Below are positions 6,432-31,620 of a stretch of DNA of 64,000 bases, piece by piece (positions within the stretch are counted from its first letter, which is position 1; each line of letters opens with the position of its first letter). This DNA is from a virus, in IMG/VR virus record IMGVR_UViG_3300018080_000002, positions 93,358 through 157,357 of that record; one strand, 5' to 3'. Under the pieces are notes generated by a model, which was not told the origin of the DNA, did not search any database, and worked only from the letters and a program-made list of their open reading frames with translations. Made by a program: the position numbers and the translations under genes.

Positions 6432-6785
6432 ATGAGACACGCAGAAAAAATCAAGACTATTGGTGCTGGACTATTAAGTGAAAGCAATCATGTGTTGAAA
6501 AACGATATTGCGGAGACGAATGCGATCTTGGAAAGGGTTGCTCATGGTTTAGAGGAAGTGAGGACTGCTGAAGAGGATTTTGAAGAATCTCTTTTTGATG
6601 AAATTGTTGAATTTGTAGTTGTGAAATATAAGCAGCAGTATCCTGACATTACTCCAGATGAACTCGCTATGAAAGCATCTGCTCTGTTCCTTACTCTGAG
6701 TAAGGCTAAGTCGGTTGTTAGGAGTGATGCAAAGCGAATGGCTAAAAAAACGGGATTAGAGAGACAAATAAAAAGAGGTTTGTAA
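6432..6785 (+). CDS. Hypothetical protein
   Basis: Helical ORF with LSE/ILE/LEE sites. Confidence 0.5.
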   Translation: MRHAEKIKTIGAGLLSESNHVLKNDIAETNAILERVAHGLEEVRTAEEDFEESLFDEIVEFVVVKYKQQYPDITPDELAMKASALFLTLSKAKSVVRSDAKRMAKKTGLERQIKRGL

Positions 6786-7261
6786 TGCGAGAACAATATT
6801 TACAAGAGATGGAAATTATAACTGATTTACTTGAGGGTTCAGGTGAGTCGGTTGTAGAAAGCGTCAATGATTATTTCTCTGCTGAAGATAAGATGAAGAG
6901 TTTGGTAGTGACTTATCTTAAGGCTAGACAATCTCTCAAAGATTGGATCGACAAAAACAAGCCGGATGATCCTTTAGCTTTTTTAAGTGATGATCCAGAG
7001 CCAAAAGAGGCAAAGTCTTTGAGGTTGAAAAAGGAAAAAGCGGCAAGTAATGCTGAAAAGTTTTTTACTAAGTTTCTTGCTGCTTATATAGCTGAACCTG
7101 AAGTGGGAAGGGCTAATTTCAAATCAGCTATGGATGGATATATTGTATCGCCAAAGTCAGTGGAGATTGAGAAAGGCAAAAAGCATGATACGAGGTCAGC
7201 TTTGTCTGTTGCTAAAAAGATAGCTCCAAATATTGTAAAGAATTATAGACTTTTTGATTAG
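6785..7261 (+). CDS. Putative internal head protein, leader family B
   Basis: MREQYLQEMEIITDLLE. Confidence 0.55.
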   Translation: MREQYLQEMEIITDLLEGSGESVVESVNDYFSAEDKMKSLVVTYLKARQSLKDWIDKNKPDDPLAFLSDDPEPKEAKSLRLKKEKAASNAEKFFTKFLAAYIAEPEVGRANFKSAMDGYIVSPKSVEIEKGKKHDTRSALSVAKKIAPNIVKNYRLFD

Positions 7262-7267
7262 AGGATT

Positions 7268-7543
7268 GTGATGCGTAATCAATATTTGAAAGAGGTATCG
7301 GATATTGTCAATTTCATGATGGGTAAATCGGACGATATCTCTGAGGAGATTGGAGATCCTATCAATGACGATGATGATGCTGAAAAAAGGCTACAGGTTG
7401 CTTTGAAGGACATCAAAGATGTTTTGAAGAAAATACCTCATTTAAAAGATCGCAAATACATCGCTCGTATATTGGGTCAGGTTCAAGTTGATATGGATGA
7501 TTTGATGAATTATTTTTCTAAAAAGAAAAGATTCAAGGGTTGA
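7268..7543 (+). CDS. Putative internal head protein, leader family B
   Basis: MRNQYLKEVSDIVNFMMG...ISEE. Confidence 0.5.
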   Translation: MMRNQYLKEVSDIVNFMMGKSDDISEEIGDPINDDDDAEKRLQVALKDIKDVLKKIPHLKDRKYIARILGQVQVDMDDLMNYFSKKKRFKG

Positions 7544-8730
7544 TGAAAGACAAAGCCTCAACAGGAGTTCCTATTATGGTAGAGGAAGCATTGGGAGACA
7601 TTGTTGAGAGAGTAAAATCGAAAAGCGAAGCTCGTAGGCTGTCTATACAGACGGGAAAGGAGATTGATATGGATGGTTTTGACTTACCGGATATGGATGT
7701 GACTGTATCTGACGATAAGACCAGAATCATTGAGGACGAAAAGAAATCTGCTATTAGAATGGCCTTTCTTGGTCTGGGTCAAGGCGGTGGTAACATAGCG
7801 GATACATTCTGGAAGTATGGATATAGGCGTGTGTTAATAGTGAACACGACTGATCAAGACTTCAAAGACATAGAATGCACGAATCGCTTGGTTATCGGAG
7901 ATGATGTCAGGGGTGCTGGCAAAGATCCAGCAGTAGGTGCGAAGGTGTTTGAGGACCACAAAGAGGATGTTCTTACAGCTATAAAGAATGCCTTTGGTAA
8001 GGACGTGGAGCAAGTAATGATCTGTGTTGGTGCTGGAGGAGGGACCGGAGGAGGTTCTGCTTCAGGTGCAGCCAAAGCGATCAAGGAATTTCTGAAAAAC
8101 AATGGATCTGAAGATGCAAAAATAGGTTTCATTGTGAGTATGCCAGCCAAGCCGGAGGGTAGTGTAGTTGTCAATAACGCGGAGACGTTATTGGGTATGT
8201 TGCGTGAGTCTGTAAAGTTGAAAGAAATAAGTCCATTGGTGGTAGCTGATAATGCGAAAATTCTTAAAATTTTTCCGAATACGAAACTTGGTCAACGTTG
8301 GGATGTTATCAATCGGAGTGTTTGTGGGCTTTTTGATAGCTTTAATGTGCTTGCTGCACAGAGTTCCAGTTATGCGACCTTTGATCCACAGGATTACAAA
8401 AAGGTTCTTAACAGTGGGATGTTGATATTTGGCAGGAGTGTATTAGGGGTTCCTGAGACTGGAACAGAGTTGAGCGATGCTATCAGAAAGAATCTTAAAG
8501 GTGGTTTTTTGAGCGAGAGATTTGCTTTAACAGCAGCCACTCATGCGGCATCCATTATTGTTGCGAACAAAGACACCTTGGACCAGTTGGACCAGGAGGC
8601 TTATGATATGTCGTTTGAAACGCTACAGAGAGTCATAGGTTCAAAGAAACTGGTAATGTATCAGGGAATTTTCGATAACGAGAAAGTTAAGGGGATACAT
8701 TATTTTACGGTAGCGGGTGGTTTAGGATAA
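7540..8730 (+). CDS. Tubulin/FtsZ-family GTPase (PhuZ/TubZ-like)
   Basis: GLGQGGGNIA (T1 loop), GAGKDP, GAGGGTGGG (T4 signature), DN, FDPQDY (T7-loop equivalent). Confidence 0.88.
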   Translation: MMKDKASTGVPIMVEEALGDIVERVKSKSEARRLSIQTGKEIDMDGFDLPDMDVTVSDDKTRIIEDEKKSAIRMAFLGLGQGGGNIADTFWKYGYRRVLIVNTTDQDFKDIECTNRLVIGDDVRGAGKDPAVGAKVFEDHKEDVLTAIKNAFGKDVEQVMICVGAGGGTGGGSASGAAKAIKEFLKNNGSEDAKIGFIVSMPAKPEGSVVVNNAETLLGMLRESVKLKEISPLVVADNAKILKIFPNTKLGQRWDVINRSVCGLFDSFNVLAAQSSSYATFDPQDYKKVLNSGMLIFGRSVLGVPETGTELSDAIRKNLKGGFLSERFALTAATHAASIIVANKDTLDQLDQEAYDMSFETLQRVIGSKKLVMYQGIFDNEKVKGIHYFTVAGGLG

Positions 8731-8744
8731 ACAAAGGAGAAAAT

Positions 8745-9611
8745 ATGTTTAAAATAGCTCATGTTTCAGAGGAATTAGCTCCAGGTGAATTTGAGAATGA
8801 GATCAAAGAAATCGCATATGCCTTAGATACATATGTTCCGAAACCGAAGCTTGGTCAGCCATTCAAAATGAAGATTGAATCAGGATTTTATGATTTGCAA
8901 TGTTCCCTGAATGAGCATTCTGTCAAAAAGCTTAAACCGATGGAGATCATTTCTGACGAGATGATGGAAACATCGTGGAATAGGGTGCTTAGATCGGAGG
9001 TTCATAAGTTTTATACGAGCAGGGACAGGCTGGAGTCGAAGGGATTGCTGCATAAAACGGGTTTATTGCTATACGGACCTCCAGGATCGGGCAAAAGCTC
9101 TCTGCTTAAGATGGAGATGAAAAGGTTAGCTCAAGATGGAAAGGTCATATTTATGGCTCGTAGCCCATATATGATCAAAGAGTCGTTGGCCAATTTCAGG
9201 AAAATGGAGCCAAACAGAGATGTAGTGGTTATCCTGGAAGATATGGATGAGTACGTTAAATATGGTCTGCATGAGATGTTGGAGACAATGGACGGTATGA
9301 ACACCGTTGATCATGTCATGTTTGTCGCTACGACGAATAACATGGAGGGGATGCCTAACAAGATCTTAAGGACTGGAAGGATCGATAAAAAGATAGAGAT
9401 ACCGATGCCTCATGTAAGAGAGAGGCGAAAGTATCTTGAGATGAAAACCAACTGGAGGCCATCATTGATTGAAAATGTGGCGGTTAGGACTGAAGGATTT
9501 GGGTACTCGGATCTCAGGACATTATGTCATTTCGTGGATGGTTATGGAATGAAGATAAGAGATTCATATAGAGAAATACGGAACGATATACGTTCTCGTA
9601 ATAAGAAATAA
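8745..9611 (+). CDS. AAA+ ATPase, classic clade
   Basis: Walker A GPPGSGKS, Walker B VILEDMDE, ATTN sensor, SRH LRTGRID. Confidence 0.9.
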   Translation: MFKIAHVSEELAPGEFENEIKEIAYALDTYVPKPKLGQPFKMKIESGFYDLQCSLNEHSVKKLKPMEIISDEMMETSWNRVLRSEVHKFYTSRDRLESKGLLHKTGLLLYGPPGSGKSSLLKMEMKRLAQDGKVIFMARSPYMIKESLANFRKMEPNRDVVVILEDMDEYVKYGLHEMLETMDGMNTVDHVMFVATTNNMEGMPNKILRTGRIDKKIEIPMPHVRERRKYLEMKTNWRPSLIENVAVRTEGFGYSDLRTLCHFVDGYGMKIRDSYREIRNDIRSRNKK

Positions 9612-9651
9612 TTTCTGTAGGTGATAATTTTATTTTTTATAGAGGTATGTT

Positions 9652-10491
9652 ATGCGAAAAGAATTTAAAAAAGAAATGGCAAGAATAGAGTCTGTTTTAG
9701 GTCGAGATACTGGCGAAAGAGATTCTATTGAGGAATATTCTGAACCTTGGATGAATAAAAAAGTTAAGAGTCAAAAGACTGGTCGAATGGTTAAGATCGG
9801 ATCATTAGAGCCAGCAGAACGAGCAAAATATCGACCAAAATCAGAGCAAAAACCAGCTCATCATCATGCTGCTGAAGCCTTGAGGAAGTCGGGACATCAC
9901 AAGTTGGCAGATAAGGTTATGAGAGATCCAAAGTCTCATGCAAAAATAGCAGATAAAATGGAAGATATAAATAATCATGGTATTGCTGCTATGTTAAGGG
10001 CTGATGATGATACTGATGTTGAGGTTTTAGCCAAGGGTGAGCACGATCATCATGAGTTTGATATGAGAGGTAAGCCTGAGAAATATGGTCATGAAAGAGA
10101 TGATGCCTTGAGGGCAAAATATGAAGCTACTAATCCAGATAAGAGGATGGGTGACGGGGACGAATTTGATAAATGGCAAGCTCCAGGCCATTTGTCTGCT
10201 TTGAGATATCTTCATAAAAACAATCTACATCATACTGATACCTATAAGCGTTTGGCTGATAAGGTCAATAAGCATAAGGATAAGTATAAGAAACTTCATG
10301 ACGAGCATCTGAAGGGCTATAAAGACAATCATAAACAAGCCAAGGCAGAGTTGAAAGAGACTCAGAAAAGATTCAAAGACAAGTATGATAGGAAATATAC
10401 GATGGGTGATCATAAGAGCTATTTGCATAGTATTAAAAGCACTCATGACACACAGAAAGATCTTGGTAGGGTTCTTGGTTTAGATAAATAG
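9652..10491 (+). CDS. His/Lys-rich putative internal head protein, leader family B
   Basis: MRKEFKKEMARIESVLG...IEE; KVKSQKTGRMVKI module; many H/K/D. Confidence 0.55.
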   Translation: MRKEFKKEMARIESVLGRDTGERDSIEEYSEPWMNKKVKSQKTGRMVKIGSLEPAERAKYRPKSEQKPAHHHAAEALRKSGHHKLADKVMRDPKSHAKIADKMEDINNHGIAAMLRADDDTDVEVLAKGEHDHHEFDMRGKPEKYGHERDDALRAKYEATNPDKRMGDGDEFDKWQAPGHLSALRYLHKNNLHHTDTYKRLADKVNKHKDKYKKLHDEHLKGYKDNHKQAKAELKETQKRFKDKYDRKYTMGDHKSYLHSIKSTHDTQKDLGRVLGLDK

Positions 10492-10501
10492 GAGATTTCA
10501 A

Positions 10502-10804
10502 ATGAGACAAGAATATATTGATGAGATGAAAAAGATCGAATCTGTTCTTTCTGAGGTTACTTTTAGTGGCGGTGGTTCTGATGATGCAGCTAAGGCATTT
10601 AAGATCCTGGGTACTAGGCCAAAATCCTCGGTAACGTCAATTGGTATAGTTGCTTATGGTACTGGCTTGAGTGAAATTGATGCGGTTTTGTTGAAAAAGC
10701 TTTTAAAGATCAAAACATTTACGGGTGTATCATTCAATCCTCAATCTAAATTAGAAATCATGTTTGATTTAGGCGATGATTTTGAGGATGAGGATGAGGA
10801 ATAG
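10502..10804 (+). CDS. Putative internal head protein, leader family B
   Basis: MRQEYIDEMKKIESVLSE. Confidence 0.55.
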   Translation: MRQEYIDEMKKIESVLSEVTFSGGGSDDAAKAFKILGTRPKSSVTSIGIVAYGTGLSEIDAVLLKKLLKIKTFTGVSFNPQSKLEIMFDLGDDFEDEDEE

Positions 10805-15761: not shown

Positions 15762-16298
15762 ATGAATAGTTGGCTTTTAATAGAGGAAATAACTGAGGCG
15801 GTAAATCGTAAGAGGACACGTCCAAGGAAGATGTCTCTCAGAAAAGAGAGAACATGGAATAGGATTGATCAGGTCCAGGATGATATTGATGAAATATTGG
15901 ATAAATTGGGGAAAAAGGAAACTATCTCGGTAGCTAAGATTGTTGAGTTGAATAACAGAGGTCGGATGCCGACTTTGTTAAAACATGCGGTTGTAGCGAT
16001 TACCAAATATTTGTTGAAAAAGACCAATGAGAGTCGATCTCAGGCGTTTATTGGAGGTCATAATATAGCGTTTTGGTCTCTTAGACGGTATGGTTATGTC
16101 AAACGAAATGGATATGCCTTAACAGGAAAAGGTGTTCTGCGGAGTAAGCTGCACGAAAGAGAGGGTGCTGAGGGTGGTCGAAAGACCGACAGGTATGGTA
16201 TTATGTATAATCAGGTATTCAAACGCAAAAAGAGCTATTCGGGTAAAGACAAATATCGTCATAAAACTGAACCGAAGATAAGAAATGTGAAAAAATGA
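15762..16298 (+). CDS. Basic protein, possible winged-helix DNA-binding
   Basis: Short leader ending ITE; R/K-rich; LRRYGYV...YALTGKG wing-like motif. Confidence 0.45.
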   Translation: MNSWLLIEEITEAVNRKRTRPRKMSLRKERTWNRIDQVQDDIDEILDKLGKKETISVAKIVELNNRGRMPTLLKHAVVAITKYLLKKTNESRSQAFIGGHNIAFWSLRRYGYVKRNGYALTGKGVLRSKLHEREGAEGGRKTDRYGIMYNQVFKRKKSYSGKDKYRHKTEPKIRNVKK

Positions 16299-16492
16299 AT
16301 ATGAAAGAGATCAATGAAAAGCTAAAGTTGATTGAGAGAAATCTTTTCAATGATGATGAAGAGGGTTTAGCGGATAAGGTAAATTCTCGTTTGAGAAAAC
16401 GCCAAAAAAAATCTGGTGACAAAATGAAAGATAGATTGCGCCGTTCTCGTAAGTCTAGGATTTCAGATAGGAAAATTAGTAACAACGCTTGA
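16295..16492 (+). CDS. Small basic protein with family-A-like leader
   Basis: MNMKEINEKLKLIE then R/K-rich tail. Confidence 0.45.
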   Translation: MNMKEINEKLKLIERNLFNDDEEGLADKVNSRLRKRQKKSGDKMKDRLRRSRKSRISDRKISNNA

Positions 16493-18593: not shown

Positions 18594-18920
18594 TTGGATA
18601 TGGCAAGAAAATTTTTGTCTGAATCCGAGATTGAAACTCCGATGGATTACAGCACTCAGACACCTCTCAGTCAGCCTGATGAGCAACATGATCTTGTTGA
18701 TGAGGCGATATGGGGTGTGATGGACGAGGTGATAGCCTTTGGACATTCGGAGTCTGCTGCTGAAAAAAGGGTTCGTGATGCTATTGACAAACTGGTAAAG
18801 GATGAAGTTGTATCCGAGACGCCAGAGTATGACGAGCCAGATGGGGTTAAATCTGCATGGATTTCAAATTCTTTGCCGAGGGTGAAGAACTATCTACGAA
18901 TGAAGGGAGATATCCTATAA
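18594..18920 (+). CDS. Hypothetical protein
   Basis: GGAGGAG RBS; acidic 108 aa. Confidence 0.5.
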   Translation: MDMARKFLSESEIETPMDYSTQTPLSQPDEQHDLVDEAIWGVMDEVIAFGHSESAAEKRVRDAIDKLVKDEVVSETPEYDEPDGVKSAWISNSLPRVKNYLRMKGDIL

Positions 18921-21443: not shown

Positions 21444-21531
21444 TCTGTGGTCTTTTACCGATTGTAACGGAGATTTAATTATGCTACTCTTTAACCAAGT
21501 AAATTTTGTACTTACGTTATGGAGTAGCCGT

Positions 21532-22500
21532 ATGAACAATAAGTATTTTTTTGACGAGTCCGAATTGGAAAAAATGGTTGAGGGATATAATTCTGGTATG
21601 TCTCCTGGTGAGATAGGTAAGGCTTTTGGTGTGTCTAGGCAAGTAATACATCATTGGTTGAAAAAACGTGGTGTTGAGATCAAGCCTAGATCCCCGTATG
21701 GAGTTCTTACGACCAAGAAAGATGTGTCTCAATGGAAGAGATGGTATCTGGATGATGGTATGAGTGTACGACAGATAGCTAAGAAAGCTGGAGTTGTTAG
21801 CTCTACTGTTGTCAAGCATTTGAACAAAGCTGGTATTCAGATGAGGACAATTTCTGAGGGTAAAACCAAGGTTACTGATGATGATCGAAAAAAGATCATT
21901 GATGATTATGAGCTTGGTTTGAACATGGAGGATTGTGCTAGGAATGTTGGTTTTTCGATGGATACTGTCAAAAGAGTTTTGTATGAGTCTGGTATTGAGA
22001 CGAAACGGGGTCGTATGATCAAGTTTAGACGCAAAGAGCAGCAGGAAAAGATTCGTGATCTTTATAACAAAGGTTGGAGTCTTTCTGCTCTTGAGCGGGA
22101 ATTAGATACCAGTAGGGATAGCATCAAAGCTGTTTTGAGGATTTATGGGATTTCGATAAAATCCTATGGAGAGCTGAATGGTTTTGATTTTGAGGATCGG
22201 AAAGGCAGAAAATACTTCATGAGGAGTGGTTGGGAGATGTCTTATGCGAGATATCTCGATAAACTAGGTCTCGATTGGGATTACGAATTAGAGTCCTTTG
22301 ATATTGGGGAAGGTCGAAAATATACGCCTGATTTTTGGGTGTATAAGAAAGATGGTTCATTAGGTTACATAGTAGAAATCAAAGGGTGGTACACCGAGAA
22401 AGCTAAGAGACGAGTGAAACTTTTCAAAGAAAATTTTCCTAAGTTAAATTTTAAGCTTTTGCAGGAGAAAAATTTGCAAGTTCTAGGTGTTCTGACTTAA
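21532..22500 (+). CDS. Free-standing endonuclease: tandem HTH repeats + PD-(D/E)xK domain (homing-endonuclease-like)
   Basis: Four Y..G.S...I....VS..TV...L...GI repeats; C-term RSGWE...YTPDF...EIKG; start moved to ATG 21532 with GGAG RBS. Confidence 0.75.
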   Translation: MNNKYFFDESELEKMVEGYNSGMSPGEIGKAFGVSRQVIHHWLKKRGVEIKPRSPYGVLTTKKDVSQWKRWYLDDGMSVRQIAKKAGVVSSTVVKHLNKAGIQMRTISEGKTKVTDDDRKKIIDDYELGLNMEDCARNVGFSMDTVKRVLYESGIETKRGRMIKFRRKEQQEKIRDLYNKGWSLSALERELDTSRDSIKAVLRIYGISIKSYGELNGFDFEDRKGRKYFMRSGWEMSYARYLDKLGLDWDYELESFDIGEGRKYTPDFWVYKKDGSLGYIVEIKGWYTEKAKRRVKLFKENFPKLNFKLLQEKNLQVLGVLT

Positions 22501-22515
22501 GGAGGGTTATTAAAA

Positions 22516-22998
22516 ATGGCTAGAGCACAATCAAGTGATTATTATCACGTCATGAAATTTCATGTTGTTGATAATCAAGATAGGCTTAATAGGTTAGCTG
22601 GTTTTACCAGCGTGACGGTTCCCGAATACACTCTTGAGGCTGTAGAGTACAAAGAGGGTATTTGGACGTATCGAAGAAAATATCCTGGGGATGTGACTGT
22701 TAGTGATATCACTCTGACGAGGGGTGTTGCTCGACAGGCGACCTATTTCTATGACTGGATAAAAGAGGCCATAGAGGGTAATCCGTACAGGGTTGACTTT
22801 GTTATTTATCAGTATCACAGAGAGGATGTTCAAGGCATGACATCTTATCTTGATGCAACGCCATCGAGACGGATTGAATGTTTTGAAGCTTTTCCGATCA
22901 GGGTTAAGCCTGGAGCGGATTTTGATTCTCAGACTGGCGATGTCAGTGTTGAGGAGATGGATCTGGCAATTGAGCGGTTTAACATTGTAGCTGAGTAA
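22516..22998 (+). CDS. Tail tube protein (T4 gp19/Afp1-like)
   Basis: GF..V..P...EY.EG...KYPG...DITLTRGV...YDW...AFP...VEEMDL. Confidence 0.9.
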   Translation: MARAQSSDYYHVMKFHVVDNQDRLNRLAGFTSVTVPEYTLEAVEYKEGIWTYRRKYPGDVTVSDITLTRGVARQATYFYDWIKEAIEGNPYRVDFVIYQYHREDVQGMTSYLDATPSRRIECFEAFPIRVKPGADFDSQTGDVSVEEMDLAIERFNIVAE

Positions 22999-23009
22999 TT
23001 GGAAAAGCT

Positions 23010-23558
23010 ATGGCTAGAGATCAGATTACTGACTTTCTGTTGTCTAATCGGTTTCATTTACTGGATGTATCTTTGACGATACCTCCAGTATTGATTCCTA
23101 TATGGGGTTTTACGAGTATCAGTGCTCCAGAGATGACTGTTTCTTATCGAGAGATAAAAGAGGGTAACTACGAGTTTCCCCGAAAGGTTGTCGAGCGAGC
23201 GTCTGTATCTGTTCTAACCCTAGAGAACGGAAGTCAGATCTTCAATTCCGGTTTTTGGGACTGGATTAGTAAGATGCCGGAAGGTAATTACGAGAAAAAA
23301 GATTTATTGTTGATGCACCTGACTGGTATTAACCCGACAGATTCAGATAGTGTTGGGATAGATATTGGTGGTTTTGGTGTGGCTACAGGGGAATTTGCAT
23401 TTAGGGTTCCAGGTAAGGCATGGCTGTTAAAAAATTGTGCAGCGGCTAGGTACAAGGCGGGTTCAGACTTTAGTTCTATGGGTGGTTCAGAGGTTAGCAT
23501 CCAGCAATTAGATTTAGAGTATGAGGAGTTTCTTGAGTTTAACGTAGGTATTGGTTGA
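23010..23558 (+). CDS. Second tail tube-like protein
   Basis: GFTSISAPE...EIKEGN...LTLENG...FWDW...IQQLDLEYE; paralogue of 22516. Confidence 0.8.
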   Translation: MARDQITDFLLSNRFHLLDVSLTIPPVLIPIWGFTSISAPEMTVSYREIKEGNYEFPRKVVERASVSVLTLENGSQIFNSGFWDWISKMPEGNYEKKDLLLMHLTGINPTDSDSVGIDIGGFGVATGEFAFRVPGKAWLLKNCAAARYKAGSDFSSMGGSEVSIQQLDLEYEEFLEFNVGIG

Positions 23559-23566
23559 GGTGTATT

Positions 23567-24025
23567 ATGAGAAACGAAAGCGATTTCGCATCTAAGACAA
23601 AATCGATGGATAATGTTCTTACATTTGCGAAGGTGATGTCCAAGAGTTATAAACAATTGACCGAGGAAGAGTTTGATACGGTCGATGAGCAGTTAGAAAA
23701 AGTCAAGATAGCATTCGAGTCGGAGCTGTCTTTATTCATATTTGAGCTATTAAAAGATTATTCGCATAAGTTCAATTGGAGCTTTGCGTCTCCGAATAGC
23801 GAGTTATTTGGTCAAAGCTGGCAGTCTCTACAGGATAGATATCAGCTCATGGGTGATGCTGATAAAATCGATCTGTATAAAAAGATCGGCATGTATATGA
23901 TCAAAGTATTTTTAGAGTTGTTTCCGAATGCAGGAGAGCAGGCAGCGGTAGAGATGGCTATGGTCTTTAAGGATCTTATGGTCGAAAGGCTGAGGGAAAA
24001 ATCTGTTCAAGCAAGGAAAGTATAA
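23567..24025 (+). CDS. Hypothetical protein
   Basis: ATG after GAGGTG; LTEEE site at about aa 31. Confidence 0.5.
   Translation: MRNESDFASKTKSMDNVLTFAKVMSKSYKQLTEEEFDTVDEQLEKVKIAFESELSLFIFELLKDYSHKFNWSFASPNSELFGQSWQSLQDRYQLMGDADKIDLYKKIGMYMIKVFLELFPNAGEQAAVEMAMVFKDLMVERLREKSVQARKV
23575..23588 (+). repeat. Dispersed 14-bp motif CGAAAGCGATTTCG, copy 3
   Basis: Exact copy, just inside the start of 23567. Confidence 0.85.
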
Positions 24026-24294
24026 TGAATCTTAAAAAACTAAATCGAACCCTCGAAGATATTGAGATGATTTTGAATGAGAATGCGTATATGACTAAGG
24101 TTCATGATGAATATGTAAAATTAAATAAGAAGATTCATGAGCATCTTATTAGGCAAGGCAAATTAGACCGTCAGTTGGACAAGATCAAGAAATTAGCAAA
24201 AAAATATGGGATATTTGAGTTATACATAAATGGTCAGACAATACAGATTCAAGAGATAAAAATAGAGGATATTTTTAAGAATATGGGGCATTAG
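24025..24294 (+). CDS. Leader family A protein
   Basis: MNLKKLNRTLEDIEMILNE. Confidence 0.65.
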   Translation: MNLKKLNRTLEDIEMILNENAYMTKVHDEYVKLNKKIHEHLIRQGKLDRQLDKIKKLAKKYGIFELYINGQTIQIQEIKIEDIFKNMGH

Positions 24295-24298
24295 TGAT

Positions 24299-24562
24299 AT
24301 GAATCTCAAAAAGCTTAATGAACAGATGGAAGAGAGCATTTCGATATTAGAGGATAAGACCGAGGAGATGAAAAAAAAGTTGGCTGTTAGGTACGGCAAA
24401 CTTCAGATGAAGGTCAATAGACTTACTGATATGGAATGGAAATGTGGCGAGGAATTGGAAAAGATAAAGAAAATAGCTGAAAGATATAAGATAAGTGAGA
24501 TTGAAGTTGATGGAGGGACTATTGATTTATCTGATGTTTATCTAGGTGATATGAAAGCTTAA
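24299..24562 (+). CDS. Leader family A protein
   Basis: MNLKKLNEQMEESISILED. Confidence 0.65.
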   Translation: MNLKKLNEQMEESISILEDKTEEMKKKLAVRYGKLQMKVNRLTDMEWKCGEELEKIKKIAERYKISEIEVDGGTIDLSDVYLGDMKA

Positions 24563-24572
24563 GGTGGTAACA

Positions 24573-25304
24573 ATGGATCTCAAAAAACTAAATCGAACCC
24601 TCGAAGAGAGCATTCGGATTTTAGAGGAAGATAAGGTTCATACCATAATGTTAGAGGCTAAGTCTAAGGTGAATGAGTCGATTATACCGAATATCCAGAA
24701 ATGGGTTGATGCTGAACCAAGAAATACCATTGGTGATATCTCGTTTGAGATGGTCGAGGGTCATATTATTATCCCTAAAGATATCGTTACTCAGGAAGTG
24801 GTTGATCGGTATACGTATGAAGATAAGTGGGAAGTTGGTGAAGAGATCAGAGAATGGTTTTGGATGAGCTATGAGGAAAAGGGTAGTAAAGATATCCCTA
24901 AAGGTCACTGGGTTGCTTTAATGTTTGATGCTAGTATTATGGGAAAACCAGCGAAAGATATCAAGACTGCTTTGAATAATTTTATCAAAGAGGAGCGGGA
25001 TTGGTTCAAGAGTATAGGTGTTAAAGTAAAAACAAAGGTTAAGCTCACAAAAGCAACTGGTTCAGAGGCAGAACATACAAATGATAGTATTGGTTGGGAA
25101 TATTTATACACGGAATTTGATTTGACTGATAGTCATATGAGCCTTTTAGGCAAGATAAAAGATTCTGACGAGTCTTATAAGCCGGATAGCTATGATACGA
25201 AGTATTATATCCCCAAGATGGAAAAAAATGGCTTAGTGGTTTCTCAAGGTGGTGGTTATGTGATTACACCGAAAGGCGAAAAACTTTTGGCTAAGGGTTG
25301 GTAA
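24573..25304 (+). CDS. Leader family A protein with C-terminal winged-helix-like module
   Basis: MDLKKLNRTLEESIRILEE; C-term KMEKNGLV...YVITPKGEKLL. Confidence 0.65.
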   Translation: MDLKKLNRTLEESIRILEEDKVHTIMLEAKSKVNESIIPNIQKWVDAEPRNTIGDISFEMVEGHIIIPKDIVTQEVVDRYTYEDKWEVGEEIREWFWMSYEEKGSKDIPKGHWVALMFDASIMGKPAKDIKTALNNFIKEERDWFKSIGVKVKTKVKLTKATGSEAEHTNDSIGWEYLYTEFDLTDSHMSLLGKIKDSDESYKPDSYDTKYYIPKMEKNGLVVSQGGGYVITPKGEKLLAKGW

Positions 25305-25690
25305 TGGATCTCAAAAAACTCAACAAAGTTCTCAGAGAAAGTATTTCTATTTTACGAACAGAGTCCGATAAGTTTCGAGATCTTCCGATATATGGTGATG
25401 CGATTCCAGCGGGAAGCACCTTAATTAAAAAGAAAAGGGCTAAAAAGGATGCCATTTTTAAGCCTGTATTAATTAAGCAAGATGCTTATAGGACAAATAA
25501 AACCATATGGGTAAGAGCTATGGGTGTGTATGAAGGCGGGAAGGTTGTCAGGAGTTTTGAATATACCAGGAGTGGTAGAGTACAACTGTCGCTATGGTTA
25601 AAATACACAGACGACCCTGTGGTTGAAGATAAAATAACAAAATACAGGAAAGGGACTATTAACGATTTGCCAGCATTGATTGTTCGATGA
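25304..25690 (+). CDS. Leader family A protein
   Basis: MDLKKLNKVLRESISILRTE; TAATG coupling. Confidence 0.65.
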   Translation: MDLKKLNKVLRESISILRTESDKFRDLPIYGDAIPAGSTLIKKKRAKKDAIFKPVLIKQDAYRTNKTIWVRAMGVYEGGKVVRSFEYTRSGRVQLSLWLKYTDDPVVEDKITKYRKGTINDLPALIVR

Positions 25691-25703
25691 CATGGGGGTA
25701 ACG

Positions 25704-26048
25704 ATGAATCTTAAAAAATTAAACCAAGCTCTAGGCGAGAGTATTAAGATATTGGAAGGAAAATCGGATAAATATTTAGCTATTAAACGTGGTTCAGGTA
25801 CAAATAGATACTATTTAACTACTGCAAAAAAATATCGTGGTCGTTGGATGATTGGTGGTGATGTTGATACAACTAATGTAACTATTCTCAAAAAGGATCA
25901 AACGGACGATCGATGGAAAGCTTATACCCTTAAAGGTAATCGTATGGTTTTTTCTGATTATGTGGATGAGGATGATTTAAGGAAATATGAGAAAGGTCTG
26001 GATGATAAAGATTTGGAAGATGTTGGTTTGAAGGACTTGTATAAGTGA
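25704..26048 (+). CDS. Leader family A protein
   Basis: MNLKKLNQALGESIKILEG. Confidence 0.65.
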   Translation: MNLKKLNQALGESIKILEGKSDKYLAIKRGSGTNRYYLTTAKKYRGRWMIGGDVDTTNVTILKKDQTDDRWKAYTLKGNRMVFSDYVDEDDLRKYEKGLDDKDLEDVGLKDLYK

Positions 26049-26054
26049 AAAAAT

Positions 26055-26327
26055 ATGGGAAAAGATATGGACAATAAGACAATCAATGAAACTGTATCTA
26101 AGGTACTTTTTAAGGATAAACCCCTTAATGAGTCTTTTCATATGAAAGACAGTGTTCTGGATGGTTTTACGTTTGAGGATTTGATTACGACCATTCAGAC
26201 TAGCGAAGCAAAAATTGATGAAAAAACTGTTCTTAGGATTCTTGAAAAGGTCATCAAGCTTGATGTTGCTGGTGCTAGGTCTGTTGTTAAAAAGGAAATG
26301 AAGAATATTTTAGATGCTTTGCAATAG
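26055..26327 (+). CDS. Hypothetical protein with leader similar to 3006
   Basis: NETVSKVLFKDKPLNE vs NKLATKVMFGQTLTE. Confidence 0.5.
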   Translation: MGKDMDNKTINETVSKVLFKDKPLNESFHMKDSVLDGFTFEDLITTIQTSEAKIDEKTVLRILEKVIKLDVAGARSVVKKEMKNILDALQ

Positions 26328-26336
26328 AGGTATGTT

Positions 26337-26915
26337 ATGAATCTCAAAAAACTGAATGAAACCTTGGAAGAAAGTATAGAGATACTGTCTGATAATAAGG
26401 TTAGAAATCCAAAGACAGGCAGGATGGTGGGTCAGAGATATCTCAGGAAAGTGATTGCTAAAGAGCATGAGACGATTGGTAATCTTGGTTTTGAGAAACT
26501 GGAGACGTTCGTAAAGCATAAAAAGAAAAGAATGAAAAAGATAAGTGAGGCTGAGGACTTTCGTACTTTGAAGCGTGGAAAAGCAGAGAAATTAATGCGA
26601 ACTATTCTTGACAAACACACGAAAGGTGTTTTTAAGGATGAACATTGGGCACCTTGGCACAAGATCTTGGATGATTTCGTTGATCATAAGGTTGATTATA
26701 CGATCGATAAGACTGAGTATTACAAACATCCGAGTACCAAGGATGAGATGCCTGATGGTAAGAGGTGGATGCTTACTGTTTATCATGGTGAAAAAGGCGG
26801 CTGGAAAGTTAATATAACAGCCTCATTTGGTCCATCTAAGCCGGGTGATACGGATAAGTACGACATGATTTATACGATAAATTGGTTAGGACGTTTAAGA
26901 AAGCCGAAAGATTAG
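26337..26915 (+). CDS. Leader family A protein
   Basis: MNLKKLNETLEESIEILSD; KVRNPKTGRMV module. Confidence 0.65.
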   Translation: MNLKKLNETLEESIEILSDNKVRNPKTGRMVGQRYLRKVIAKEHETIGNLGFEKLETFVKHKKKRMKKISEAEDFRTLKRGKAEKLMRTILDKHTKGVFKDEHWAPWHKILDDFVDHKVDYTIDKTEYYKHPSTKDEMPDGKRWMLTVYHGEKGGWKVNITASFGPSKPGDTDKYDMIYTINWLGRLRKPKD

Positions 26916-26924
26916 AGGTGAAGT

Positions 26925-27263
26925 ATGAATCTTAAAAAATTGAATGAACAGCTTGAACGGAGTATTTCTCTCTTGGAGAATAAGGATTCTGTTGATGGAG
27001 AATATCTTGTCAAAGTAGAGAGACAACCGATTTATAGTGATTCAGCTAAACACGCAACGTATAAAGTGTCGCAGAAAAAACTAAAGGTTTCTGATGGTAG
27101 TGTTTTCTTAAATGGAAAATCATTTAGGTTGAGTTCGCCTTTTGATTGGTTGCAAAAGGCGTTAGAAAAAGGTTTTGATTCTTTGAAAGCTGATGAGCAT
27201 ATCGTTTTTACGACACAAAAATTAAAGTATGAGCTGGTCGATATAATAAAGAAAATACGTTAG
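26925..27263 (+). CDS. Leader family A protein
   Basis: MNLKKLNEQLERSISLLEN. Confidence 0.65.
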   Translation: MNLKKLNEQLERSISLLENKDSVDGEYLVKVERQPIYSDSAKHATYKVSQKKLKVSDGSVFLNGKSFRLSSPFDWLQKALEKGFDSLKADEHIVFTTQKLKYELVDIIKKIR

Positions 27264-27272
27264 AGGTGAAGT

Positions 27273-27746
27273 ATGGCCGTAAAAGACGAAATTGATATTG
27301 CCAATATGATCATGGCAAAACCAAAAATTAGAATGAATGCTGGAGAGAAACAGCCAGCTCAGTGCATAGGTGGAGCTAGTAAGACTGGTCCTAATAGCGA
27401 GATAGCTACAGGTCAGTTAATGGCCGAGGAAGTTAAAATGAGCGATTTAAGGCCACAAAGGAGAGCTAAACCCTCATTATCCAATGATCGGAAAAACGAG
27501 CTTAAAGAGGCAATGAGGAGGTCTCATCTACATAATACGAGACAGGAGCCTATCACTGAGGATATGGGTTTTGAGGAATCTGTTGAGAGTTTATTTGAGG
27601 CTGTGAATAATATTGAGTTAGGGATCGAGGAAATTGGTTCACAAACTGGTCGAGTTGGTCGTAAGATGGTTGAGGAGTGGGATATGCTACTCAAGCGTCT
27701 GAAAAGGTTTGAGTTGTATTATGATCGAGCAATGTCAAAATTATAA
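27273..27746 (+). CDS. Hypothetical protein
   Basis: Same TAGAGGTGAAGTATG start context as 26925. Confidence 0.5.
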   Translation: MAVKDEIDIANMIMAKPKIRMNAGEKQPAQCIGGASKTGPNSEIATGQLMAEEVKMSDLRPQRRAKPSLSNDRKNELKEAMRRSHLHNTRQEPITEDMGFEESVESLFEAVNNIELGIEEIGSQTGRVGRKMVEEWDMLLKRLKRFELYYDRAMSKL

Positions 27747-27758
27747 GGTGATTGTCGT

Positions 27759-28412
27759 ATGATAGAACAGTTGATTGAGCTGGAGGCTGCGAATAGATAT
27801 CAGCCTTGGGTTGATCCTGGGTTAGATCCTGAATTTGTAAGGATGAAAGATGCCGTTCAAGAGCATACCGTGCTTTGTATTTATCGTTTATATACAGCAT
27901 ATCAATTTCTAAAACATGCTTTACGAATGGTTCATGGCAACGTAGCTGATATTGGTGTTTATAAGGGTGGATCTGTCAGGCTTTTTGGAGAAATGGCGAC
28001 CAAAGCTGGTCGAAAGACTTATGGCTTTGATACTTTTACTGGAGAACCGGAAACTGCTCCTTGGATAGATATTCATAAAGAGGGCGATTTTTCTGATGTT
28101 AATTTTGAAGATGTTCAAAAATTTGTGAAGAATTTTGATGTTGAGTTGTTTAAGGGGGTATTTCCTGAGACTGGGGACGTTATTAAAGACGATAGATTTT
28201 GTTTTGTTCATATAGATGTTGATTTGTATTTATCATGCCAGGATTGTTTAGAGTTTTTTTGTCCGAGAATGTCTGATGGAGCGATTATTTTATTGGATGA
28301 TTATGGCACCAAGTCATGTCCAGGTATCAAGCTTGCTACGGATGAGTTTGTTTTTGACAAAGATAAAAGTTTGATATTTTTGCCGACAGGACAGGCGGTG
28401 ATTATCTGTTAG
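27759..28412 (+). CDS. TylF/MycF/NovP-family sugar O-methyltransferase
   Basis: DIGVYKGGS, YGFDTFTG.P, KG.FPET, FVHIDVDLY, LLDDYG. Confidence 0.88.
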   Translation: MIEQLIELEAANRYQPWVDPGLDPEFVRMKDAVQEHTVLCIYRLYTAYQFLKHALRMVHGNVADIGVYKGGSVRLFGEMATKAGRKTYGFDTFTGEPETAPWIDIHKEGDFSDVNFEDVQKFVKNFDVELFKGVFPETGDVIKDDRFCFVHIDVDLYLSCQDCLEFFCPRMSDGAIILLDDYGTKSCPGIKLATDEFVFDKDKSLIFLPTGQAVIIC

Positions 28413-28422
28413 GAGAATAACG

Positions 28423-28791
28423 ATGGATCTACGTAGTCTGAATAAAAAGCTGGAGGAATCTATTTCTCTTTTAAATGAGGGAAAGACTGCTGATGGAACA
28501 GTCACCATTGAAGGATGGTATGACAAGGACGATAACGAGTGGAATCTGGAGATTGAATATACGGTTGCTGACTATGAGTATGGTGCTGATAGAGATAGCA
28601 GGCGGGGTATGAGGCGAGTAGACCTTGAGGATTGGAGCGTTTCTCATGCTGAGTTAGTTTATCCGACCAAAAAAGATCTGGAGCCTGGGGAAAAATTGCC
28701 TAAATTCAATGAAAGAAAGCTCTCTCGCAAAGAATTGAAGGATCTCGGAGATCAGATTGAGGATTTGGCTAGGGAAGATTATCATGGATAA
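28423..28791 (+). CDS. Leader family A protein
   Basis: MDLRSLNKKLEESISLLNE. Confidence 0.65.
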   Translation: MDLRSLNKKLEESISLLNEGKTADGTVTIEGWYDKDDNEWNLEIEYTVADYEYGADRDSRRGMRRVDLEDWSVSHAELVYPTKKDLEPGEKLPKFNERKLSRKELKDLGDQIEDLAREDYHG

Positions 28792-28969
28792 AATATCGGA
28801 ACAAACGACTACTGCTAATGTCCCTGGATTTGTTGTCCCATTGGGGATGAAATCTCCATTTATGACGAAAAAGGACTATGCTGATTTCGTTAAAAATGCT
28901 TCCAAATCTAAAAAATCCAGAAAAATGAGTTACCCTCTCCTGCGTTGGGATTACTTCCTTAGAAAATAA
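28784..28969 (+). CDS. Small hypothetical protein
   Basis: MDKISEQTTTANVPGFVVPLG. Confidence 0.45.
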   Translation: MDKISEQTTTANVPGFVVPLGMKSPFMTKKDYADFVKNASKSKKSRKMSYPLLRWDYFLRK

Positions 28970-29053: not shown

Positions 29054-29284
29054 ATGGGTAAACCGATTGTAGGCAAAGTTCGTTTGAATTTGTTTATGCA
29101 GGCAAAGTTGTATATCGAATTGTGTCATATCGCGGAGACTGATGATCGAAGCATGGCTGACGTTATCAGGGAAGCGTGTAGAGATTACGTGGTTCGATAC
29201 AAAAGACGTGGAACGCATAAGTATTTTAATCAAGGAGTAAGCGATGAGCGAAGTGACGAAAGAGGTAGGGACAACGACAGTTGA
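29054..29284 (+). CDS. Ribbon-helix-helix (CopG/Arc-like) DNA-binding protein
   Basis: VRLNLFM...LY.EL..IA....RSMADVIREA...Y. Confidence 0.7.
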   Translation: MGKPIVGKVRLNLFMQAKLYIELCHIAETDDRSMADVIREACRDYVVRYKRRGTHKYFNQGVSDERSDERGRDNDS

Positions 29285-30044
29285 TCAGATTGTTTCAGGG
29301 GTAAAGAGTGATACTAAATCCAGCCATACCTGTATAGAGCTGCCGACAGGTTATATCGATCAGGATGGAAATCTTCAAAAAGCGGTGGATATCAGACCGT
29401 ACACAGGTGAGGAGGAGGATATATTAGCCTCTCAGAAAATGCCTATGTATCGAAGATTGGGCAAGTTGCTGGAGAATTGTGTAACCAGGATTGGTGATAT
29501 TGATGATCCGAAGAGATTGAAAAGCATTATTCGTCAGTTAGTTTTTTCTGACAGATTGTTTTTGATCGTACAAGTAAGGGCTGCAACAAACGGAAATATC
29601 TATTCTTTAGATGTAAAATGCCCTGAAGAGGATTGTGGCTTGAACAGTATGCAGCATATTGATCTAGCTGATATCAAATGGGTTGGATTGCAAGATCCCA
29701 TGAAGCGTCAATACTCGTTTAAGCTGCCTGGTAGTGGTGTTGATGTGACATGGAACGTTATGGATGGAATAAGAGAGGAGAGGATTCATCAGCATTCCTT
29801 GGATCGAGATTTATTATCTGTGGGAATTTTGGCTAGGTTGAACGATCTCGATACTCGCCGAGTTACGATGGCGATGGTTAAAAAGATGACGCCTCCACAG
29901 AGACGAGCATTAAGGAAAGAGTTTGAAAAGGCTGAAGGGACTTTAGATGATCAGGTAACGTTTGAGTGTAAGCATTGCGGTCATGAATGGACGGATTCTG
30001 TTGATTACGCGCAACCAAGTTTTTTCTTCCCTACGGACGAGTAG
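29244..30044 (+). CDS. Tail assembly chaperone / T4 gp26-like, Zn-ribbon containing
   Basis: LP.GY, IRP.TG.EEDIL, DRLFL...R, CPEEDC and CKHC; ends FFFP; upstream of tape measure. Confidence 0.7.
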   Translation: MSEVTKEVGTTTVDQIVSGVKSDTKSSHTCIELPTGYIDQDGNLQKAVDIRPYTGEEEDILASQKMPMYRRLGKLLENCVTRIGDIDDPKRLKSIIRQLVFSDRLFLIVQVRAATNGNIYSLDVKCPEEDCGLNSMQHIDLADIKWVGLQDPMKRQYSFKLPGSGVDVTWNVMDGIREERIHQHSLDRDLLSVGILARLNDLDTRRVTMAMVKKMTPPQRRALRKEFEKAEGTLDDQVTFECKHCGHEWTDSVDYAQPSFFFPTDE

Positions 30045-30202: not shown

Positions 30203-30838
30203 ATGGAAGATCGTAAGCCGTGGAGATTGACCTGGGATGAAGAGGGATATACTTATGCTTATTTTGTTAAAGGGAAAGACAGTGATAGGCATGAGGAGTT
30301 ATTTAAGGAAGTTGTTAACCGACATATAGATAACAAGGCAGATTGTCTGCAAGTGGGTATCCCTCATGGTATTGATCGAGAATTTGGTGGAGAGGGTAAG
30401 AAATTTGGCAAAAATTTCATAGCCATTGATTTATATGATCAGAATCCCGAAATAGATTACAATGTGGATTTGTCCGATACTCCTTTCGATAGTGATTGTT
30501 TTGATTTTATAGTTTGTCCGGCAATATTAGAACATGTTAAAGATCCGTTTAAATGCGTAGATGAAATATATAGAATCCTTAAAAATGGCGGTGAAGTATG
30601 GTGTGAGGTTCCATTTTTTCAACCCTTTCATCCATTTAAGGGCTATAATGAAGATGATATGGGATTAGCATTAGATGATCAACAGATCGAATTTACAGGC
30701 GATGAGGATCATGGTGGAGATTACTGGAGGTTTACGCCTCAAGGTGTAAGGCAATTATTTAGGCGATTTGAATTGATCGAGATGTTCCTATGTAGAGAGG
30801 GTGGAATTTGTTTCTATGGCCGTAAACCGGAGGCATGA
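30203..30838 (+). CDS. Class I SAM-dependent methyltransferase (glycan-locus type)
   Basis: PF.SD.FD.IV..AILEHV.DP...EIYRILK.GG, VPF..PFH, DYWRFT..G. Confidence 0.82.
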   Translation: MEDRKPWRLTWDEEGYTYAYFVKGKDSDRHEELFKEVVNRHIDNKADCLQVGIPHGIDREFGGEGKKFGKNFIAIDLYDQNPEIDYNVDLSDTPFDSDCFDFIVCPAILEHVKDPFKCVDEIYRILKNGGEVWCEVPFFQPFHPFKGYNEDDMGLALDDQQIEFTGDEDHGGDYWRFTPQGVRQLFRRFELIEMFLCREGGICFYGRKPEA

Positions 30839-31620
30839 ATTTGAAAACCGATATTACAGGGACTCTTTTTGTTAAAGATAATTTTAGATTAGATTACTGT
30901 TTAGAGGAATCGGTCAGGAGTTTACTTCCTTTTTGCGATGAAATAATTGTTTTGGATTGCGGGAGTCGGGATGGCACTCAGGAATTGATCAGAAATCTTG
31001 CCAATGAGAATACTAAAATTAAAGCTGTTTATGACCATCCTTGGGATGTTGCGTATGGGTATCATAGGCTAAGGATTATTGCAGATGATGCTCGTAGAAT
31101 GGTTAAGACCAATTGGCATTTCATGTTACAGGCTGATGAGGTTGTTCATGAAGATAGTGTTCCATTTATTTTAGATGCTGTTAAATCGGGTTGTGGTGAT
31201 AGGTTTTTCTGTCGTCGTTATAATTTATTTGGAGGCATGGATCACTATATAAGATTTGGAAGTTCGTATCAGCCGTGTAATGATCAAGTAGTACGGTTAG
31301 GTAAACAGGTTTTTGCAGTTGTTGGAGATGCCGAGAATATTGATTCGGATCATGCTGTTGATGATTATTTGGATAAGATAAATATCGTGCATTACGGTTT
31401 TGTTAGAACGGGGTCTATTTTGTTGGATAAGGCTATCGAGATGCAGGAATGGTTTGGATTAGGGGTTGATTCTCGGTTGTTGGCTATGAAGAAAAGAGGA
31501 GAAATTTATGAATCTGAGGTCTTTATATCCAAAGATTATTTAGATGCGATACCATTTAGCCATCCGAAAGTTGCTCAAAAATGGGTTGATAGTAGGCGTA
31601 ATGATTTAACAAGGAAGTGA
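30835..31620 (+). CDS. Glycosyltransferase family 2 (GT-A fold)
   Basis: ESVRSLLP.CDEIIVLD.GS.DGT, W.F.LQADE (DxD-like), HYG. Confidence 0.85.
   Translation: MNLKTDITGTLFVKDNFRLDYCLEESVRSLLPFCDEIIVLDCGSRDGTQELIRNLANENTKIKAVYDHPWDVAYGYHRLRIIADDARRMVKTNWHFMLQADEVVHEDSVPFILDAVKSGCGDRFFCRRYNLFGGMDHYIRFGSSYQPCNDQVVRLGKQVFAVVGDAENIDSDHAVDDYLDKINIVHYGFVRTGSILLDKAIEMQEWFGLGVDSRLLAMKKRGEIYESEVFISKDYLDAIPFSHPKVAQKWVDSRRNDLTRK

Follow-up and report, generated by a model that had tools for sequence, protein, structure and literature searches.

Eight otherwise mostly unrelated proteins with a common N-terminal leader, a candidate capsid-targeting propeptide, in a variable island of a distant T4-type phage

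Eight open reading frames (ORFs) at positions 24025 to 28791 of a viral DNA stretch begin with a common N-terminal helix of 18-19 residues, consensus MNLKKLN-x-x-LEESI-x-ILE, here called leader A. The stretch, from here on the window, comprises 64,000 nucleotides and forms the last 64 kb of the 157,357-bp virus record IMGVR_UViG_3300018080_000002 of IMG/VR (positions 93,358 to 157,357). Direct terminal repeats are present on the record, the + strand holds nearly all genes and the GC skew is strong. Samples ENA ERZ27256796 and ERZ27256773 and JGI 3300017991 contain this phage. A preliminary description, made from the nucleotide letters, had likened the leader to the tags of the internal head proteins of phage T4. 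Here we examined the leader, the genes bearing it and the island around them in this phage and its relatives, and we weigh the functions that the leader may have.

Genes of the leader array

The array genes are tightly packed within the late structural operon, and the island holding them is bounded by tail tube genes on one side and a baseplate hub gene on the other. The genes are, in order:

22516..23558, + strand, two T4 gp19-type tail tube genes (starts 22516 and 23010), upstream of the island
23567..24025, + strand, conserved gene of 152 amino acids (aa), the island's upstream boundary, found in all relatives examined
24025..24294, + strand, leader gene 1, 89 aa; leader at residues 1-19, small helical payload related to that of gene 2
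24299..24562, + strand, leader gene 2, 87 aa; payload a paralogue of the gene 1 payload
24573..25304, + strand, leader gene 3, 243 aa; weak C-terminal winged-helix match
25304..25690, + strand, leader gene 4, 128 aa; basic payload with an isoelectric point of 10
25704..26048, + strand, leader gene 5, 114 aa
26067..26327, + strand, possible ninth member, 86 aa; decayed leader
26337..26915, + strand, leader gene 6, 192 aa; two modules fused
26925..27263, + strand, leader gene 7, 112 aa
27273..27746, + strand, leaderless framework gene, 157 aa; kept in the relatives L138, L143 and L145
27759..28412, + strand, leaderless TylF-type methyltransferase, inserted in the array and absent from the relatives' islands
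28423..28791, + strand, leader gene 8, 122 aa; acidic payload
28784..28969, + strand, leaderless framework gene, 61 aa; conserved in relatives
29054..30044, + strand, ribbon-helix-helix gene (29054) and T4_baseplate (PF12322) hub gene (29244), the island's downstream boundary

The count of eight given in the preliminary description held for the whole genome: in its six-frame translation the leader pattern was found exactly eight times, and every copy begins at the ATG of an ORF (24025, 24299, 24573, 25304, 25704, 26337, 26925 and 28423). Independent gene calls from other assemblies of this phage have the same starts, and a purine-rich ribosome-binding site lies 6-10 nt upstream of each leader gene. 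With a profile of the first 21 residues the eight scored 36-44 bits and the genome's next best 7 bits; against the N-termini of all 222 ORFs the leader profile gave 38-47 bits for the eight and 5 bits for the next. The 26067 ORF matches the leader at 5 of its first 10 residues and has a short deletion; its profile score falls short of significance.

When 5.8 billion proteins were searched by word index with the leader profile, the eight proteins of this phage were the only ones retrieved, which is weak evidence of absence given that only 8000 candidates were scored. A degenerate DNA pattern of the leader yielded 13 matches in IMG/VR and at least 118 in metagenomes, all of them single chance matches of at most 15 bits. 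Elsewhere in the window, the N-terminus of a 65-aa ORF (16295-16492) is faintly like leader A; its ungapped score of 34 equals that of the best shuffled control and its profile score is 4 bits.

The leader-bearing ORFs comprise 87-243 codons and their payloads 70-220 aa. That the payloads are mostly unrelated, as had been proposed, was borne out after removal of the leader: similarity persisted only between those of 24025 and 24299 (32% over 59 aa, E 2e-10), while every other pair gave E > 0.01. The payloads are hydrophilic, five of the eight are basic and seven lack cysteine. PHROGs, Pfam and NCBIfam returned a single sub-threshold match for them, the winged-helix match of the 24573 protein. 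For the same protein a search of 1.84 billion representative proteins found no homologue, and single-sequence AlphaFold gave a predicted local distance difference test score (pLDDT) of 36. A word search found no homologue of the 26337 protein. The C-terminal module of that protein, which folded at a pLDDT of 77, had no significant Foldseek match in PDB or BFVD, and a search of the ESM Atlas gave nothing usable for the payloads. The payloads are ORFans.

Internal sigma-70 promoters and terminators occur in the array operon at background level only. The T4 late promoter TATAAATA is present in 9 copies, with 5.2 expected, none of them in front of an array gene.

Conservation of the leader and variation of the island

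The conservation resides in the peptide. Over leader codons 2-18, the mean pairwise proportion of differences was 0.72 at synonymous sites (pS), which is saturation, and 0.29 at nonsynonymous sites (pN). All six leucine codons are in use at the invariant Leu6 and five of them at position 10. The leader DNA is 48-76% identical among the eight, and the 30 nt upstream of the leader genes are about 30% identical. Because the synonymous sites are saturated, the leucine codons mixed and the upstream DNA so little alike, the leaders are old and are maintained by selection on the peptide.

Two longer identities at the DNA level had been pointed out before, and both are exact. A 26-nt run is common to 24025 and 24573, and a start context of 15 nt to 26925 and 27273; each occurs in 2 copies in the window and in none of 100 shuffles. 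The gene at 27273 has this start context and lacks the leader. The proposal of a recombining cassette stands in part: the tagged genes do vary within a conserved island, but with DNA identities of 48-76% and saturated synonymous sites the leaders are a poor substrate for present-day homologous recombination. Homologous exchange between leaders today is therefore unlikely, with the exception of the 24025/24573 pair and its 26-nt run.

Relatives were phages in Logan assemblies, reached via homologues of tube protein 2, whose loci were compared with that of the window (they are designated L with a number). The Logan assemblies SRR26786826, SRR9107545 and SRR19193843 hold full-length relatives. 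The cultured-phage collection gave no close relative by megablast of the region or by tblastn with tube protein 1, and in IMG/VR no relative was found with peptide patterns of the tube and capsid proteins. The gene order common to the relatives is tube 2, a 150-aa gene, the island, the ribbon-helix-helix gene and the hub gene. L147, the most distant phage examined across the interval (43% tube identity), has no island. In L141 (48%) the island consists of four unrelated genes, with an AAA ATPase among them. L145, L149, L138 and L143 (61-69%) have framework orthologues of 23567, 27273, 28784 and 29054, and between these framework genes they have differing genes.

When the relatives were scanned for the leader, as the preliminary description had suggested, clear family A leaders, at 38-41 bits, were found in L143 (two genes) and L138 (a single short ORF). 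L149 has a gene with a recognisable variant in the slot that 28423 occupies in the window, and the leader-tagged ORF of L138, 38 aa long, corresponds to that slot as well. Of the eight payloads in the window, only that of 26337 has homologues in the relatives' islands; the phage of the window has accordingly an expanded tagged set, as judged from these comparisons, and it is the tagged genes that vary within the island.

Two observations concern leader-like sequences in the relatives. At L138:13182-13431, identical in L139 and L140, the 38-codon leader-tagged ORF overlaps a 46-codon ORF in another frame; this overlap, seen in three independent assemblies, may be explained by a frameshift in a cargo gene or by two tiny genes. 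Upstream of the sheath gene of the window, 18594-18920 encodes a small acidic protein whose orthologues (L147:4372-4755 and L150:5362-5757) have about 20 extra N-terminal residues; this stretch, which the window protein lacks, is leader-A-like, but at 8 bits it is within noise.

The one cargo with homologues in relatives is a natural experiment on the purpose of the tag. Its N-terminal module, residues 1-68 of the 26337 protein, corresponds to an entire 68-aa gene product of L143 together with the leader (60% identity, E 2e-26). Residues 68-191 align with positions 15-138 of another L143 protein, 138 aa long (50% identity, E 4e-50), and the first 18 residues of this second protein are again a leader. 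The order of the two genes in L143 is opposite to the order of the modules in the 26337 protein. Each independent polypeptide bears its own leader and the fused protein bears one, which fits a tag that acts per polypeptide; the finding that the halves are separate in L143, each with a leader, suggests that the tag is separable. At the joint of the 26337 protein the tripeptide I-S-E (residues 69-71) aligns with L-L-E at positions 16-18 of the leader on the 138-aa protein. Such a kept I-S-E would be expected of a tag that functionally ends in [LI]xE; this is a single case, and it may reflect either a fusion or a fission.

Candidate functions of the leader

In T4, foreign proteins can be brought into the head by no more than the first ten residues of the internal protein IPIII, the prohead protease gp21 cuts after L/I-X-E, and the internal proteins of T-even phages are diverse with only the tag conserved (PMC9026906, PMC3012670). 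The capsid-targeting sequence (CTS) of T4 IPI, IPII, IPIII and Alt and the polymorphic internal-protein loci of T-even phages go back to Mullaney & Black 1996 and Repoila et al. 1994, as summarised in PMC3012670 and PMC9026906. The T4 tag reads MKTYQEFIAE (PMC8442874).

Leader A resembles the T4 CTS in being a short N-terminal peptide common to otherwise unrelated small proteins, with [LI]xE in it or at its end as far as the sequence tells, and the locus resembles the T-even loci in that cargo genes vary between related phages and the tag is kept. The T4-type head machinery that the comparison calls for is encoded by this phage as well. Its head genes lie upstream, outside the window. Their products include a gp20-like portal, a highly acidic protein of 460 aa, an S77 protease resembling gp21 (PF03420, E 3e-17, above the Pfam cut-off) and a gp23-type capsid protein. 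The latter aligns with T4 gp23 at 27% identity (E 3e-36), including the N-terminal propeptide region; it has L-T-E between two motifs that flank the T4 maturation site, a site that the alignment does not fix. Differing from T4, the protease, whose domain takes up about the first 190 residues of the product of L002:11053-12651, is fused to a long tail of about 350 residues of coiled-coil, scaffold-like sequence, and the leader occurs in eight or nine tandem copies in an array inside the tail tube-hub block. The portal gene (L002:5984-8932, genome 83984-86932, outside the window) encodes 982 aa; portal residues 265-364 match ribonucleotide reductase and helicase families and may be an intein or another insertion.

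All eight leaders contain the tripeptide [LI]xE; six have a copy ending at residue 18 or 19 and five a copy ending at residue 12, and the three clear leaders of the relatives have it at 18/19 too. Together with the T4-type machinery, the T4 precedent, the mild enrichment of [LI]xE in the protease-scaffold protein, the selection on the leader peptide, its presence on each polypeptide, the variation of the tagged genes within a conserved frame and the position in the late structural operon, the motif in every leader leads us to favour the reading of leader A as a T4-like capsid-targeting propeptide on variable cargo, to which we give a probability of about one half. On this model the tagged proteins would be made late, alongside the structural proteins; the leader helix would bind the scaffolding core of the assembling prohead, so that each tagged protein becomes enclosed; and the gp21-like S77 protease would cut after the Glu of [LI]xE, either inside the leader or where it ends. 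Once released, the cargo would remain in the head and probably enter the host with the DNA. Head destination, cleavage, injection and function are what we infer from the T4 analogy. The cargoes would form an accessory set of fast turnover; that they serve counter-defence or host take-over is conjectured from the example of T4 IPI*.

Several points weigh against this reading. The array is 26 kb away from the head genes, with tail tube genes on one side and baseplate hub genes on the other, and this position is held in the relatives. As had been noted earlier, the leader looks distinct from the T4 tag: compared by eye, its consensus shows no resemblance to MKTYQEFIAE, and with about 19 residues instead of 10 it has twice the length. 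The motif [LI]xE has no fixed position, 25304 and 26337 lack it at residues 16-19, and it is frequent by chance in Leu/Glu-rich helices; about two thirds of the listed ORFs of the region have it somewhere among their first 45 residues, so that it does not discriminate. In scaffold-like proteins its enrichment is modest, with 15 sites in the protease-scaffold protein and 9.0 expected (p 0.02); T4 gp22 served as positive control, with 16 sites and 5.7 expected. Finally, the leader is not significantly similar to the N-termini of the phage's own head proteins, of which the protease-scaffold protein ranked 11 and the acidic core-like protein 46 among 222. A likeness of the leader to these two N-termini that was perceived by eye was given up, being unsupported by these profile ranks.

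Alternatively, the leader could be an interaction or oligomerisation helix for a common partner inside the cell, be it a host factor or a hub protein of the phage, with no packaging involved. It is amphipathic, as the preliminary description had stated (hydrophobic moment 0.41-0.68), and its Leu/Ile residues have a heptad-like spacing. Coiled-coil and trimerisation models gave weak, non-significant matches, and the payloads carry no hint of virion association. However, the leader always begins at Met1 and stays on both genes where a payload is divided, the genes lie in the late structural operon and not among early genes, and given the T4-type head machinery a propeptide role is simpler. We therefore regard such an intracellular helix as a tentative and rather unlikely explanation.

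Also unlikely is a role of the leader as a tail or virion docking tag, which would attach the proteins to a tail, neck or hub component, or as a tag for loading them into the tube lumen, perhaps via a Cdc48-like AAA unfoldase. This idea draws on the following further genes of the window:

6785-7261, family B leader gene, flanking tubulin-like and AAA genes
7271-7543, family B leader gene, likewise
8745-9611, single-domain classic AAA ATPase among late genes (PF00004, E 4.7e-15; p97/Cdc48 in PDB, E 2e-24)
9652-10491, family B leader gene, likewise
10502-10804, family B leader gene, likewise
19656, start of the sheath gene, inside the window
21481-22500, homing-endonuclease-like gene containing several helix-turn-helix repeats, after the sheath gene and before the tube genes

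Leader family B is about 17 residues long, starts with MR and is found on four otherwise unrelated proteins, which score 30-35 bits with their own profile (next best 6). The tail reading is favoured by the slot of the island, which is fixed between tube and hub genes in all relatives having an island, by the presence of a single-domain Cdc48-like AAA ATPase with four family B leader genes at its flanks, and by the orthologue of this ATPase inside the tube-hub island of L141, a 169-kb relative (L141:11390-12349, 40% identity, E 1e-60). Contractile-tail particles offer a precedent: in the extracellular contractile injection systems (eCIS) of the Photorhabdus virulence cassette (PVC) type, N-terminal signals and an AAA ATPase load payloads into the tube, and as in our phage N-terminal tags on diverse payloads lie by contractile-tail genes with a Cdc48-like AAA protein encoded in the same element (PMC11495950). 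Unlike eCIS/PVC, the element described here is a complete phage with a DNA-filled head. PVC signals comprise about 50 residues and are poorly conserved, and Pvc15 has two AAA domains. Leader A, in contrast, is an amphipathic helix of about 19 residues, its genes lie inside the structural operon and not after it, and the AAA protein has one domain and does not adjoin the array.

Against a tail function, the AAA gene is 15 kb from the array in the window, L141 is without a clear family A leader, and the genes adjoining the array could not be shown to be tail assembly factors. The late-operon position may, moreover, just mark a permissive insertion site, as the homing-endonuclease-like gene between sheath and tube illustrates. 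We know of no phage that uses a linear N-terminal signal for tail loading.

A more specific version, which we consider distinctly improbable, would make the leader the recognition tag of the phage's Cdc48-like AAA unfoldase, which would load cargo into the tube or hub or thread it into the particle, with families A (24025-28791) and B (6785-10804) serving two compartments or loading steps. If true, an AAA-recognised leader would be the phage counterpart of eCIS cargo loading by Pvc15.

As a separate observation, a motif K-V-[RK]-x-x-K-T-G-R-M-V follows the leader in one family A protein (26337-26915) and one family B protein (9652-10491), with a pairwise E of 0.002; the motif is found in L143 and L138 too, and perhaps in L141.

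Very little speaks for an ordinary paralogue family whose C-terminal parts have diverged beyond recognition and whose N-terminus serves no particular purpose. In its favour are the tandem arrangement of the genes, the true paralogy of 24025 and 24299 and a weak likeness that in some pairs reaches residues 40-65. Yet the likeness drops sharply past about residue 20 although the synonymous sites of the leader are saturated, the proteins range from 87 to 243 aa with differing predicted structures, and in L143 both halves of the protein that is fused in the window carry the leader. As for an RNA or DNA signal (a translational operator or recombination site) with the shared peptide only a by-product, the 26-nt run and the 15-nt start context are outweighed by the low leader and upstream DNA identity, the pS of 0.72, the use of every Leu codon at the invariant Leu and the leaderless 27273 with its start context, and as main cause it was excluded on the codon evidence.

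A double-glycine bacteriocin leader or export signal was considered and dropped; the leader has no Gly-Gly end and no hydrophobic core, and the payloads measure 70-220 aa.

Apart from T4, giant phages related to phiKZ offer a further comparison for the preferred reading of a capsid-targeting propeptide. In phiKZ, 201phi2-1 and SPN3US, gp21-related proteases remove propeptides from head, inner-body and ejection proteins; many head-internal proteins are cut after Glu by a diverged S77-type protease, and there are paralogous cargo families (PMC9026906). The phage of the window is not phiKZ-like, and the phiKZ-like cleavage sites, S/A-X-E, differ from the motif in leader A. To our knowledge, no short shared N-terminal leader of this kind has been described for phiKZ-like phages.

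Neighbouring genes and implications

Downstream of the hub gene follow two transferases, a 1251-aa protein and baseplate genes. Just after the hub gene, 30203-30838 and 30835-31620 encode a second methyltransferase and a protein with a faint precomputed Glycos_transf_2 match; both, like the TylF-type methyltransferase inside the array (27759-28412), are missing at the same places in the relatives examined. The homing-endonuclease-like gene is not found at the corresponding place in L138 and L143. A tubulin/TubZ-like gene (7540-8730; PF00091, E 2e-16) is present in this 157-kb T4-type phage and is kept upstream of the sheath gene in L141, L146, L147 and L150.

The principle of a conserved tag on diverse internal proteins has been known for T-even phages since the 1990s. 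What is new here is that a very remote T4-type lineage has a longer tag of unrelated sequence, whose array lies in a hypervariable tail-module island inside a conserved frame, together with a natural pair of split and fused cargo and a second tag family beside an unfoldase gene. If leader A is indeed a capsid-targeting propeptide, the T4 device of a clip-off address tag on exchangeable cargo would reach very distant T4-type phages, with 27% capsid identity to T4; the tag could then be unrelated and longer, and cargo genes could be gained, lost, split and fused behind it. The tagged ORFan proteins, late and presumably co-delivered with the DNA, would be a place to seek new counter-defence or host take-over factors, and the leader could serve as a tool for loading foreign proteins into such phages.

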